From assembly GCA_951406725.2 (NCBI GenBank), contig OX597822.1, positions 107,942,001 through 108,006,000 on the forward strand: a stretch of DNA of 64,000 nucleotides. Direction: 5' to 3'. The position numbers were made by a program, and so were the translations under genes. This DNA is from Octopus vulgaris (Eukaryota). The notes beneath the pieces were generated by a model. It worked only from the letters and a program-made list of their open reading frames with translations, had not been told where the DNA came from and did no database searches. This document shows, one piece after another, positions 12,191-63,985 of this stretch; positions within the stretch are counted from its first letter, which is position 1, and the number at the start of each line of letters is the position of its first letter.

Positions 12191-13782
12191 ATTGATCAAA
12201 ATAAAAACATGATGCGAAGGATTCAGCGGTACATATGTTTCTGGCCTTTATTAGACAGATTTATAACAATGCATAATGTATGTCTGTGGCCTTCTTCAGC
12301 CGCGCACAACAGCTTCCACAAAGACATGTGTTACATCAAAAATTCTTGGTTGGGGATGCAAATACTCTCATTCGCGTACGACATAATGCGGCAGCAGCAT
12401 AGAATTGAAGCGTCCATCTCTTTCTTCTCTCAATGTAGAATGAGGAAATTTGGATGTTGAAGTAATGTAAATAAATAAATACATATATAGACGTGAAGAT
12501 GGAGGGGCGAGAATTCAGGACGAGGGATAAAAAATGTATAAAAAGTGTAAGTATAGAAAAATATAAAAATGTAGAGTATAAAGATATAAAGGGATATAAG
12601 GAGATGTAAAGGGGGTATAAAGAATATAAAGAAATATAAAGAAATATAAATGAATGTAAAGGCATAAGGTTATAAAGTAAAAATAGAAATAGAAATAAAA
12701 GTAAAAAGTAAAAAAATAAAAATAGGAATAAACATGATAAAAATGTAAAAAAATATAAAGATAAGCGATGTATAGATGTTACGGACCAAACATGGTGGTC
12801 AGGAGATTGATAAAATTTAGTTGTAGAAGTTTTGGGTGTCAATAAATCAACAGTGTCGTCTGGGGACCTAGTGTGTTGTAAATCAGAGCTGTTGAGCGTT
12901 TAATCTAGTTCTTTGAATTAATTGGTCATCTTGTACTTACATACCATCATGGATACATACACCCATATACACGCGTACATATACGCGCGCATACACGGCT
13001 CCAAGCCTATAAGCATACACGCGCACTCACGTGTAAACATGTACATAAACACACATACACCCACACGCACGCGCACTCACGTGTAAACATGTACATAAAC
13101 ACACATACACCCACACGCACGCGCGTACATATACATACATACAACAGAATATCCGCATGTACACACGGACATTATACGTGTACACACCCATATATACATA
13201 CGTGCGCCGATCCTTACATACACATACACATATGCCCACGCTTCCAGGTTTAGATATAAGATATTAAAGGATGTATATAAGAACGTATGTAAAGAATCAC
13301 GCACTCACGTCTACACGTGCACGCACACACGGCTGTGTGTCCATATGTGCGTGCACATATACACTTACATACACACACAGAAACATACGCGCATATGGGT
13401 ATAGCTATAAGATATTAAAAGATGTATACAAATAGGTGTAAACATATGAATATAAGAAAACATGTAAAACAATGTAAGGAAATACGGGGTATGTACATCC
13501 AGGCGTAGATGTTTACTCGTACATATGTACACATATGTATACGTATACATACGTACACGGACGCTCGTATAATCATAAAGCCGATCCATAGGTAAGTAAA
13601 TAAGGGATAAGCAAAAAAAAAAATAGACATATATAGAGATATAAAGCGATAAGTTAGGGGTAAGAATGAGGGTAAGGGTAAAAATTAGAAATAAAAGTAA
13701 GAAATACAATATAAAATAAGAAATACAATGTAAAAGTTAGAAATGAAATATAAAAATTATAAAAATTATAAGAATTAAGATA
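12191..13782 (-). repeat. Left inverted arm (inverted pLTR copy) with an internal 50 bp tandem duplication at 13021-13120
   Basis: Reverse complement of 15804-17357; mirrored ORF translations (12336..12842- vs 16696..17118+). Confidence 0.95.
12226..12303 (-). ncRNA. Type I hammerhead ribozyme (PLE pLTR, left arm)
   Basis: Minus strand gcgg-CTGAAGA-a-ggcc...ggcc-a-GAAA-catatg-TA-ccgc: stem I gcgg/ccgc, stem II ggcc/ggcc, palindromic stem III, GUA site. Confidence 0.75.
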
Positions 13783-13783
13783 C

Positions 13784-15199
13784 CCCACCAACAATAGGAG
13801 TAAACTAGAAAGAATTAGGAAAAAGATCAGGCTTTTTTTCAAATCCTTCAATCTTAAACTAGAATTTATGACCAATACTAAAATAGTAAACTTCTTAGAT
13901 GTTACGTTAGACTTGAATAAGCACCTTCACCACCCGTATAGGAAACCCGAAGAAACTACCAAATACATCCATACCTCTTCCAACCATCCACCCTGTATAA
14001 TTAGCACCACGGTCCAAGCCATCTCAGACAGACTTACAAAACTATCCTCTAACAGAGAAATTTTCAATAATCACGCACAACACTACAACCAGGCTCTCTA
14101 TAGTGCCGGGTATAACCAGAGAATATCATATGTAGACCACCCGGGAACGTCCGTCGGCCATAAAACTCCCAATTATAATCGAACTCCGCACTCAACTCAC
14201 ACTAGCGATAATTCTAATTTAAACTCCAAACAACGTATAGGAAATAGGCGAACTAATTGAATAGCACACAATAGTAACCCTCCCGACGAGAGCAATATAG
14301 ATCCTATTAGAAGAAATAGAAGGGATAATAGTAGATTACGCAAATATATATCGTTCAACATACCTTACAACTTAGAAGTTAGGGGTAAGTTATGTAAGAA
14401 AATATTCTCTATCATTTCCAACAACTTCCCACCCACCCATAAGTATAGAAGTATCTTCTCCAACAAAACCATTAGGATTTCCTACTCTATCCTGCCCAAC
14501 ATGAGCTGCCTCATAGCTAAACATAACTATATTAATATTAGAACAGCTAGATCAAGAGCAAGCTATAGCGACCAACAGAACCTCCCTCATCCAGATAGTA
14601 GACAATATAATCAGACTGGCAGCCATACTACCCAAACAGTTAGTAATAACACCCGCCAACACAACAGAGGAAATACTACACCCATCAACAACCAGGAGGA
14701 TATCAACGCCCCCACTCGTATTGCAACAACTCCGCCTGGGATTAGCAGCACACGACCGAATAATGCAATGTAATGCAACTGCAGATGTGCATCAGAGTAC
14801 CCGCTACAGGGCGCATGTAGGGCGAAAAACGTAATATATTCATGTGAGGTGAGTACCCAGTTTAACACACTCACCTACATAGGTTGCTCAACCTCCTGGA
14901 AATCCAGATACTACAACCACCGGTCCTCGCTGAAACACAGACATAAGGCTAACAGCACCTCCCTTTCTAAAAAGATTTGGGAATTAAAAGACAAATGCAT
15001 AGGCTTCAAACTCAGGTGGTCCATCATCGGATCAGCTGCACCTTATTTAAATAATAGAGCAGGATGCCAACTATGTTGTGTAGAACTCCTGAACATCTTG
15101 AAATTCAAAGACAAACACAATCTTATTAACAAAAGGTCAGAGTTCAAATCATCCTGTATACACAAACTTATTAACACTTTCAAATACTACAAAGCTTAG
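13784..15199 (+). pseudogene. PLE polyprotein C-terminal half (RT thumb, linker, Cys motif, GIY-YIG endonuclease)
   Basis: Single frame with two stops (14258 TGA, 14771 TAA): VNFLDVTLDL..PYRKP..YIHTSSNHPP; ISYSILPNM..IAKHN; CNCR..YPLQGAC; NVIYSC..TYIG..WKSRYYNH..STSLSKKIWELK..CQLC..NKRSE. Confidence 0.92.
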
Positions 15200-15803
15200 G
15201 TTATTATACCAACTCCCTCATGCAATTTCCTCCCACCAGGTGCAACCTGTCGGCTCCAGCACATCCCGCTTTCCTATATGTGCGTGTATATGTGTATGTG
15301 TGTGCGTATATATATGTATGTGCACATATGTGTACGTATATGTATATATATATATATATATATATATATGTGTGTGTGGGGATGTGGGGGGTGTGTATGT
15401 GCATATATGTTTCCCTGCATTTTCCTCCTATATATACACATTTTGTCTCCCATATATATCTTTTTTTCCCTACATATTTCTTCTCCTACACCCATATTCT
15501 TCCTATATAGTCTCTTTATTTCCCTATATCTATACCCTTTCACATTTCTAACTCGGATGTTGAACGCACACCGCCAAACTCCACTTCCCACCCTTCCAAA
15601 TTTTCAGTTCCCCCCGCCCGCCCCTACGTGGGCACCTTTACCACACACCTCTAACTTTCAACCACCTTCATCTCATGTTAAAATTTACCAAATTATATTT
15701 TTATTTTATTTTTATTTTTATTTTTACTTTTATTTTTACTTTTATTTTGCTTTATCCTATTCTACTTCGCTTTACCTTTATTCTCATTTTTATTTTCATC
15801 CCT

Positions 15804-62776: not shown

Positions 62777-63510
62777 CAGCGTGTCCGAATACACTGTATA
62801 CACACTTTAAATAATTGTAAAGTAGGTGTTTATTAAAATACATTTTATTTTCAAAATTTAATAGAATCTATAGGCATTCTCCTATTGTTTTGTCAGCGCC
62901 TGTTTTCAAACTGACGTCCGTTCTGGTCCAAGCACTGCTGACAACGCAAATCACTGGAATCGCAAACATCACGAAACAATTCGTTTGGTATTCGTGTACA
63001 TTGTCACTCAATGGCAGCTCTGAAATCAGTGACTGTTGCAGGTTTCATACCCTAGATGTTGTCTTTTAGATACCCCCATAAAAAAGTCTAGTGATGCGAG
63101 ATCTGGTGATCGCGGAGGGTACTCAACGAAACCCCTTCGTCCATTTCACCTGTTTGGCAACATCTCCTCAAGGAAGGATCATTCATCACGATGGTAGTGT
63201 GTGGGTACCCCATCTTGCTGAAAATAAAACTCCCCATCTTCAAAGTCTTCTCTAATGATAGGCAGGACAGACTGTTGCATCAAGTTCAAGTAAGCAGGAC
63301 CAGTCACAGTAGCGTTTCAAAAGAATGGTCCAATTTTTCCTCTTGATGATAAGCCACACCACACTGTAATTCCTGGTAAATTAACACGGTGTTCCGCCAT
63401 AACATTGCCATAGTTTCTGTGGTGTTTTGCGGAACTTCCAGCTCTTTTTACACCAAGTTCATGTAACTATTGCGATCATTCTGTGAATTGCAACGAGTAG
63501 TTTTTAAATA
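62777..63510 (-). mobile_element. Tc1/mariner-superfamily (Tc3-like) transposase relic with TIR
   Basis: Minus strand [37 protein letters not shown]-cagcgtgtcc TIR-like end at 62775-62786. Confidence 0.85.
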
Positions 63511-63786
63511 CAGTTTTAAAAAATTACGTCGTTAATAATTTCAAACGATGTATATATATATATATATATATATATATGTGTGTGTGTATATATATATATT
63601 CATATATAAACACACGAGCACACACACACACACATATATATATATATATATATATCTGAGCTGAAACTAAATTAAAAAAATATATATATATATATCAAAT
63701 ATAATGTTGATATATATGAACATCTCTCTCTCTCTCTCTCTCTCTCTATATATATATATATATATATATATATATATATATATATA

Positions 63787-63985
63787 TGTAGGTCCCGGGT
63801 TGAGTCGGAGTTAACCACAGTAAATAAGGTACTCAATACATAGCAGAGTAAATTAATTTATTTTATAGAAGGAGTTTACAGGACTAGAACTGTTTCATTC
63901 AAACGAAATCATCAGGAAGCTTCCTGATGATTTCTTTGAATGAAACAGTTCTAGTCCTGTAAAGCTCCTTCTATAAAATAAAAGA
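63787..63985. mobile_element. Foldback mini-element, family B: loopless palindrome with mirrored hammerhead cores
   Basis: 63858-63982 is palindromic about aggaag|cttcct; CTGATGA-tttc.tttgaat-GAAA-cagttctag-TC on both strands; 70 bp extension on the left. Confidence 0.8.

Follow-up and report, generated by a model that had tools for sequence, protein, structure and literature searches.

Hairpin inserts at (TA)n tracts of the Octopus vulgaris genome as likely truncated 3′ ends of several Penelope-like element families

A 64,000-nt stretch of the Octopus vulgaris genome (assembly GCA_951406725.2, contig OX597822.1, positions 107,942,001 to 108,006,000; hereafter the window) carries 11 inserts at microsatellites, most of them a hairpin with a one-sided unpaired tail. 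The hairpin inserts are best explained as 5′-truncated 3′ ends of Penelope-like elements (PLEs) that belong to eight families and lie by (TA)n, and sequence comparisons suggest that the hairpin probably arose by twin priming, with both ends of the cut target extended on one RNA. Most of the small inserts are independently truncated copies, not fixed mini-elements. A first-pass annotation, made from the letters of the window, had proposed a candidate mini-element system. Such a system is not new, because an inverted copy, a tail, a hammerhead and (TA)n targeting have all been published for PLEs (PMC8557442, PMC3846280, PMC11167929; sources are cited here for the parts of them that were available). 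The proposal that many co-existing PLE lineages inserting at (TA)n left the small inserts as truncated or non-autonomous copies did hold, as six of the eight families link to PLE open reading frames (ORFs).

Local inverted repeats were located by comparing the window (33% GC, with abundant (TA)n and (CA)n) with itself after masking of simple repeats. They lie at 12192-13782/15804-17356 (95% identity), 20469-20713, 28626-28712, 35762-35800/36169-36207, 53490-53654, 55794-55987, 56570-56686 and 63857-63982, with a weak one at 17563-17613. All 11 inserts that had been annotated were found in place, and they sort into eight repeat families, in line with the expectation of several unrelated ones: BIG, A (three copies), B (two copies), C, D, E, F and G. 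The single plan proposed for all of them applied to eight, namely 12192-17430 and those beginning at 20411, 28622, 35761, 53490, 55730, 56570 and 63787. Two others, 53990-54080 and 55430-55607, contain no hairpin, an inverted arm being fused to a tail stub of 38 nt and 11 nt, respectively, and the insert at 17462-17620 is decayed. The 3′ ends of all eight families cluster at two points, site 1 at the start and site 2 at the end of the tail, 54-142 nt apart; the annotated tail length of 55-150 bp was thus close to the measured one.

Genome searches with each small insert (for family A also with the tail plus 35 nt) covered the assembly of 2.8 Gb in 227 contigs and gave 20-30 loci per family; loci are cited by numbers with the prefix L. 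For six of the eight families the search led to PLE ORFs at other genomic sites, of Hydra type in five families (BIG, A, B, E, F) and Nematis-like in one (C), while the tails of D and G led to ORF-less tandem units; the predicted linkage was therefore obtained for six families. Sequence is continuous from tail to ORF in A (L319), B (L038, L323), E (L320) and C (L331, L332). The family-E locus L320 displays the full plan of inverted arm, pseudo-long terminal repeat (pLTR), ORF, pLTR and tail, with a unit of 2581 bp, and partial pLTR tandems with a 5′-truncated inverted copy and a one-sided tail occur there as well as in L331/L332 (C), L323 (B) and L077/L078 (BIG). The parent ORFs of A, B and E carry frame breaks; intact ORFs belong to BIG (842 aa) and C (1312 aa). 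For family F, a decayed Hydra-type endonuclease lies about 1.1 kb upstream of site 1 in L308, with no further part of the ORF, and the intervening untranslated region (UTR) is partly common to one second locus. An ORF beside family F in L254 was rejected as its parent, as it belongs to a separate family-B insertion. L315 and L322 contain a partial tandem of family F with an 813-bp period and no ORF, maybe a non-autonomous derivative of F or a local duplication.

A Pfam search with six window peptides and two parent ORFs returned no reverse transcriptase (RT) or GIY-YIG match, and the RT and endonuclease identity of the parents rests on motifs and mutual similarity. BIG, A, B and E have DKT rather than DKG. 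The CxCX5C linker is complete in BIG and E together with the lack of CCHH and with the CxxC and CxH motifs on either side of E and N; in B only the linker was seen, and in the family-A locus L319 one Cys of CxCX5C is replaced. The Hydra clade is defined by DKT, RWK, CxCX5C, no CCHH, a canonical hammerhead ribozyme (HHR) and (TA)n targets, and its listing includes an octopus family, Hydra-1_Obim of Octopus bimaculoides (Craig et al. 2021, PMC8557442). The available parts of that source also describe a minimal hammerhead of type I whose stem III is palindromic, an attached inverted 5′-truncated copy, and CxxC and CxH motifs in the endonuclease, all as found here. The hammerhead layout of family A is that of Hydra-2_Amil, and the ORF starts of A and E resemble Hydra-1_Obim by eye. 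There are differences from Hydra, too: RWK, retained in A and E, becomes RWA in BIG and RWR in B; position 4 of the A and E hammerheads is often C; and tails measure 69-73 nt against 30-40. Hydra elements are generally under 3 kb (PMC8557442); the unit of family E measures 2581 bp and that of BIG about 4.4 kb. At least five Hydra-type families occur here, against one octopus Hydra family in the supplement of that source.

The family C parent is a 1312-aa ORF with DKS, YVDD, a compact CX4CxxC linker and a C-terminal CCHH endonuclease. With Nematis/Neptune-type PLEs it shares the CX2-5CxxC linker, CCHH and the compact spacing of the Nematis rows in the published Fig. S2, and it differs in having C for A9 in a hammerhead-like motif and in the strong (TA)n targeting of the family. 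Its ORF (L331:1509-5447, minus strand) has a long Asn/Ser/Asp-rich low-complexity stretch ahead of the RT, comparable to the Asn-rich stretch of Adineta Penelope ORFs (PMC3846280). Family C is young, since many copies are 99-100% identical. In every parent where the endonuclease was seen it is C-terminal, which departs from the Naiad arrangement of an N-terminal endonuclease without canonical HHR. By their motifs, we thus class BIG, A, B, E and F as putative Hydra-type and C as Nematis-like elements.

Insertion targets were scored as (TA)4 within 24 nt beyond distinct family ends, tandem read-through ends being counted too, and for the background 20,000 positions were drawn at random from 60 evenly spaced stretches of 10 kb each (600 kb). 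(TA)4 was present beyond 341 of 418 family ends, as against 4.9% of random positions, so that the suspected enrichment of (TA)n in the flanks was confirmed. By family, the counts were 118/131 for A, 60/63 for B, 47/53 for E, 13/16 for BIG and 17/33 for F. Family F is the exception: four of eight site-1 ends lie on (CA)n, the arm side of the window insert at 55730 meets (CA)15, and tail ends sometimes run into (TC)n, which suggests that this family may prefer another target than (TA)n (ends at window 55988-56017 and in L270-L273). Two family C copies outside (TA)n (L175, L196; L185 is also listed) are flanked by direct repeats of 10-12 bp that resemble target-site duplications, as for Penelope; inside (TA)n such duplications are unreadable. 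A de novo filter applied to the 600-kb sample retrieved 10 asymmetric TA-flanked hairpins (about 17 per Mb) and three symmetric calls, and four hairpins in the window, whose density is thus some four times the average, although hairpins of this kind are not unusual. The same random sample (L114-L173) holds 318 arrays of (TA)10 or longer, and further TA-flanked hairpin-plus-tail families beyond the eight were noticed in L109, L118, L151:4009-4271, L162:2628-2865 and L167.

The geometry of the pairs was best read in family C, where pairs were chosen by two endonuclease matches facing away from each other and the tail was not used in the choice. Of 31 such pairs, 30 were resolved, one running past the fetched edge, and all 30 combined one site-1 arm with one site-2 arm, i.e. 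they had exactly one tail. The tail-less site-1 arm was longer in 18 pairs, the tail arm in 11, and both were equal in one, with uncorrelated lengths (Spearman 0.22, p = 0.25); the excess of the tail-less arm reaches 4 kb in L331. At the junctions the arms overlapped by 1-14 nt in 18 pairs, were blunt in two, and were separated by 2-4 extra nt in five and by 29-983 nt in another five. Only one of the 30 long pairs was a perfect palindrome. BIG pairs showed the same geometry in five loci. Among the small inserts, 122 pairs of a site-1 and a site-2 arm stood against seven symmetric calls, 100 of the 122 having been found by queries that contain the tail and eight being the window's own; the tail-less arm was longer in 27 of 110 pairs. 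Because searches with the whole A or C insert favour copies of the same shape, the pairs they gave (26 for A, 11 for C) do not enter the counts of apexes and arm lengths. Two arms of the same insert resembled each other more closely than arms of different inserts, with divergences of 3.2% against 6.4% in A (n = 44), 2.0% against 5.1% in B (n = 19) and 1.9% against 5.9% in E (n = 9), and in these three families only 0-1 of 2000 permutations gave a value as low.

These observations are probably explained by the following course of events. The GIY-YIG endonuclease would cut both strands within (TA)n, whereupon one cut end would prime at site 2 and the other at site 1. Both cDNAs would halt early and independently, and their 3′ ends would join via 1-6 nt of microhomology. 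The outcome would be a head-to-head pair with the tail on one arm only, and a small hairpin if both cDNAs stopped after 60-250 nt. In L1 twin priming, a second target primer likewise gives an inverted 5′ part that is joined by microhomology. In L1, the internal position at which that primer anneals varies, and there is hardly any overlap between the two parts; in the inserts, both copies begin at fixed sites and cover the same region. For PLEs, a protein that cuts and extends both target strands in vitro has been described, with two start sites on the RNA that delimit the tail, uncleaved RNA as its substrate and a predicted dimeric state (PMC11167929). Because of the two start sites and the extension of both strands, two cDNAs made from two target ends on one RNA would be the simplest reading. 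A literature search that did not extend to subscription journals retrieved no printed twin-priming model for PLEs.

The same PLE origin may also be combined with an inversion by self-priming, in which one strand folds back, the loop being of any length, and one arm is then trimmed to site 1 by the endonuclease. Self-priming on an antisense template has been proposed (PMC3846280), and the tail has been ascribed to endonuclease resolution (PMC8557442). Fold-back would account directly for arm variants shared within an insert, and palindromic apexes are indeed common in families A and B: in A, 30 of 58 arms begin between -84 and -77, and in B, 36 of 52 begin between -72 and -60, counted from site 1 and in both families at short palindromes. 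However, a simple snap-back from tail-primed cDNA cannot lengthen the tail-less arm, which is the longer one in 18 of 30 family C pairs and 27 of 110 small pairs, and the extra trimming step is required, while initiation at two sites has been seen in vitro (PMC11167929). The single tail in 30 of 30 pairs, the uncorrelated arms, the longer tail-less arms and the shared variants therefore speak for twin priming on a single RNA rather than for simple snap-back, though they do not prove it, and we regard fold-back with trimming as a rather unlikely origin of the inserts.

Several points weigh against twin priming. The same genomic pattern can result if a strand folds back with a loop and one arm is trimmed afterwards. 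In vitro, no strand difference in the use of the start sites was seen (PMC11167929), which alone would predict more symmetric products. Small pairs that were met by chance outside the window were asymmetric in only 14 of 18 cases. The seven symmetric calls comprise five tail-tail pairs and two without tail, which by inspection are mostly tandem, complex or diverged; L290:1188-1460, by contrast, is a clean two-tailed family-A hairpin and an exception to the one-tail rule, as is the site-1/site-1 pair of BIG in L361. The sharing of arm variants is modest in C, where 6 of 2000 permutations reached a value as low, and weak in G (2.5% against 2.7%; 73 of 2000), and shared variants could also come from gene conversion after insertion or from one common subfamily.

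The recurrent apexes bear on another alternative, in which the small hairpins would be self-propagating non-autonomous mini-elements, copied whole in the manner of a miniature inverted-repeat transposable element (MITE) or a hairpin-forming short interspersed nuclear element (SINE). A search with the 238-bp A insert gave 39 full-length matches (window copy included) of 93-100% identity with nearly the same apex, and the apex hot spots of A and B point the same way. Such a search, however, selects the same shape, and tail-anchored samples contain variable arms and apexes, solo arms, and continuations into parent UTRs and ORFs. The letters at the apex also differ among copies, with 13 variants for family A. 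The inserts are like MITEs in being short, AT-rich, hairpin-forming and numerous; symmetric terminal inverted repeats and uniform length were looked for in the small inserts and not found, and lengths vary and sequences run on into retroelement ORFs. That they are not MITEs, as first annotated, can thus be maintained, and whole-copied mini-elements seem improbable. The apex zone lies 0-17 nt upstream of the hammerhead core, and the longest A and B arms begin at an A after C in a short palindrome. These hot spots could reflect the 5′ end of the RNA (run-off), annealing at the palindrome, or fall-off of the RT after a structured element.

The two arms might instead stem from two RNAs or from two insertions into one (TA)n tract. 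Several families do stack in the same tracts (window 17430-17462; L180, L209, L290), and the C copies are too alike to discriminate between donors. Yet the arms abut with overlaps of 1-6 nt and no TA between them, one tail was present in 30 of 30 pairs, and arms are more alike within an insert; we consider two separate events very improbable. Inverted duplications are a known type of long-read chimera, so that artefacts of reads or assembly were also weighed. Among contigs of four public runs that cover 35300-36480, none spanned the whole family-E insert and no empty site was seen. These contigs nevertheless contain family-E head-to-head joints at many positions, and in two of the runs a contig of single-copy flank reaches 35761. 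As the arms differ by 2-6%, the ends are family-specific and the hairpins recur at well over a hundred loci, an artefact is scarcely credible.

The largest insert, BIG at 12192-17430, has arms that are 95% identical over about 1.6 kb. The inverted arm (12192-13782, minus strand) is 5′-truncated, lacks the tail, terminates at +3 of site 1 and abuts (TA)10. It is followed on the plus strand by the 5′-truncated Hydra-type ORF (13772-15199), which covers the end of the RT region, the linker and a GIY-YIG-type endonuclease, by the 3′ UTR/pLTR up to site 1 (15200-17356), and by the 73-nt tail (17357-17430), which meets (TC)n first and then (TA)n. The ORF is 94% identical to residues 371-842 of the intact 842-aa ORF in L077 and has two in-frame stops. 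It starts at residue 371, directly after the YRDD motif, and lacks the RT catalytic core; of the GIY-YIG/RT machinery annotated in this element, it retains the endonuclease but no more of the RT region than its C-terminal part. The tail matches L077:2938-3016 at 100% and equals the leader immediately upstream of the ORF in full-length copies (in L077 the ORF starts at 3078). In the genome, the BIG endonuclease gave 18,780 first-look candidates, and that of one other family 9,081; several BIG copies retain the 842-aa frame, and the full unit measures about 4.4 kb. The small inserts do not derive from the 5.2-kb element: they have no sequence in common with it, and separate parent ORFs exist for five of the seven families to which they belong. 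A weak match to a Hydra-type RT region (window 7221-7545, plus strand; E 2e-6) is an old PLE remnant apart from the inserts.

Hammerhead motifs had been annotated in at least four families, and they do occur in BIG, A, B and E in the window; only two copies, however, pass the full descriptor, the type I hammerhead of BIG (12230-12299, minus strand) and that of family E (35779-35829, minus strand). The second BIG copy at 17249-17318 has one mismatch in stem I, and the remaining motifs of the window have point changes or are cut short. The relaxed descriptor found these two motifs against a mean of 0.1 in shuffled sequence; a first, strict descriptor was uninformative (one motif against 0.37 in shuffles) and was dropped. 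Near the anchors, descriptor matches were found at 4/30 loci for A, 13/30 for B, 1/25 for D, 21/25 for E and 3/25 for G, besides BIG in the window. In these six families the core is of type I, stem III is short and either palindromic or closed, and stem I differs in sequence from family to family yet still pairs; many loci are truncated before the motif. Family F gave 0/25 matches (its stem I is weak). In family C, the motif has C in place of A9, and the single match among 15 loci lies in unrelated flank. No hammerhead family appeared among the best 150 of 199 Rfam matches in the window or among 134 matches for seven parent loci, and those listed were microsatellite-driven microRNA matches below cut-off. 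Judged by motif, the hammerheads are candidate ribozymes. Hammerhead cleavage was tried and rejected as the source of the 5′ ends: 41 of 58 A arms, 39 of 52 B arms and 27 of 40 E arms run past the start of the core. Since most arms extend through the core, the hammerhead probably does not set the 5′ ends, which agrees with uncleaved RNA as the substrate in vitro (PMC11167929).

Families D and G form ORF-less tandem units of 455 bp and 570-592 bp (about 580), respectively, with one type I hammerhead per unit. Their GC content is low (30-32%), the longest sense frame has 43-60 aa, and no PLE ORF of their own was found in the 25 loci examined for each family, although autonomous parents may exist beyond these loci. 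The tail runs back into the unit's own upstream part and thereby closes the unit in five independent D loci (L212/L221, L209, L213, L214, L218) and in three G loci (L282, L291, L292). D and G thus resemble retrozymes in sequence and might be moved in trans by PLE machinery. Animal non-LTR retrozymes are likewise low-GC, ORF-less tandem units with one hammerhead, and they have been argued to be non-autonomous PLE derivatives (PMC7229834; bioRxiv 10.64898/2026.07.22.740005). Their units are shorter, however, at about 220-390 bp, and, unlike them, D and G are mostly dispersed truncated copies with the PLE signature of inverted arm plus tail. The main text of the bioRxiv article, as far as available, never uses "tail" and has "inverted" in a reference only.

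The known PLE unit, a pLTR with an adjacent inverted pLTR and an optional tail (PMC3846280, PMC8557442), has the same plan as the inserts, which are scaled down and carry their tail between the two ends. Inverted pLTRs and 3′ extensions are treated as routine in PMC8969392. Two RT start sites (PMC11167929) and close opposite-strand pairs of minimal HHRs (PMC4209133) are similar to what we observed, including the palindromes at junctions. While the available parts of PMC3846280 and PMC8557442 present the tail as optional or as a result of resolution and contain no census of it, here one tail per pair is nearly obligate and arm lengths are uncorrelated. A 2026 repeat annotation of O. vulgaris (PMC13282606) lists recently active Penelope families; neither "hammerhead" nor "Hydra" was found in its main text, to the extent available.

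The small inserts of the window are arranged as follows. The decayed relative of family A (75% identity; 17462-17613, minus strand) was found by self-comparison; its tail arm spans 17592-17462, a weak 51-nt hairpin lies at 17563-17613, and (TA)n is present on the tail side only. The family C insert (20412-20716, minus strand) joins a tail arm (20584-20412, minus) to a site-1 arm (20585-20716, plus) and stops before the hammerhead core. Family D (28622-28866, plus strand) has a site-1 arm up to 28676 (minus), a tail arm at 28674-28866 (plus) and a tail of 142 nt, its truncation falling before the hammerhead. The Hydra-type family E insert (35762-36298, plus strand) consists of a long site-1 arm from 35762 (minus) and a short tail arm (36169-36298, plus). 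In the Hydra-type family A insert at 53490-53727 (plus strand), the site-1 arm (53490-53573, minus) and the tail arm (53573-53727, plus) each contain a hammerhead motif with point changes. The Hydra-type family B insert at 53990-54080 (plus strand) has its site-1 arm (53990-54041, minus) fused to the final 38 nt of the tail, and in the family A insert at 55430-55607 (minus strand) a 167-nt site-1 arm (minus) with a hammerhead motif is joined to the last 11 nt. Family F (55724-55989, minus strand) has a tail arm at 55881-55724 (minus) and a site-1 arm at 55902-55989 (plus) that runs into (CA)15. Family G (56570-56795, plus strand) has a site-1 arm up to 56640 (minus) and a tail arm at 56640-56795 (plus), and stops before the hammerhead. 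The second family B insert (63787-63982, minus strand), with a tail arm at 63921-63787 (minus) and a site-1 arm at 63918-63982 (plus), has a hammerhead core in both arms, with small deletions that damage stem I.

Other repeats of the window were noted in passing. A 170-bp inverted repeat of 78% identity at 10522-10689/10821-10985, absent from the first-pass annotation, has no adjoining (TA)n. Short dispersed repeats of several families, probably SINEs, lie at 26544-26917, 31817-31939, 42994-43530, 48737-49019, 51045-51191, 52325-52713, 53785-53878, 54187-54363 and 57514-57746, and they often adjoin the same microsatellite tracts as the inserts. A 141-aa frame at 29157-29582 (plus strand), with no Pfam match, resembles by eye a Tc1/mariner transposase fragment. 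The repeat copies at 74-517 and 3141-3542 are 92% identical, and by eye their frame is like a fragment of an RTE-type long interspersed nuclear element.

The head-to-head inversion and the formation of the tail in PLEs are described as unsettled in PMC8557442, PMC3846280 and PMC11167929, as far as these texts were available. A genome with many near-identical young copies and intact ORFs therefore allows rival models to be counted and then assayed. At about 17 per Mb, such hairpins could be misfiled by repeat pipelines as MITEs or unknowns. D and G, in turn, connect units of a retrozyme-like kind with the signature of PLE insertion. We tentatively extend twin priming to a bolder form that is possible but doubtful, in which two-site priming on one RNA would be obligate, the tiny A and B hairpins would be run-off (strong-stop) products from the 5′ leader of the PLE mRNA with their apex near the transcription start, and D and G, as ORF-less circular units, would integrate through PLE enzymes. 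If this is true, transcription would start at the A and B apexes, a few bases ahead of the hammerhead, and the signature in D and G would provide direct evidence, from the genome itself, for an integration of animal retrozymes via PLE enzymes and not by a separate rolling-circle route.

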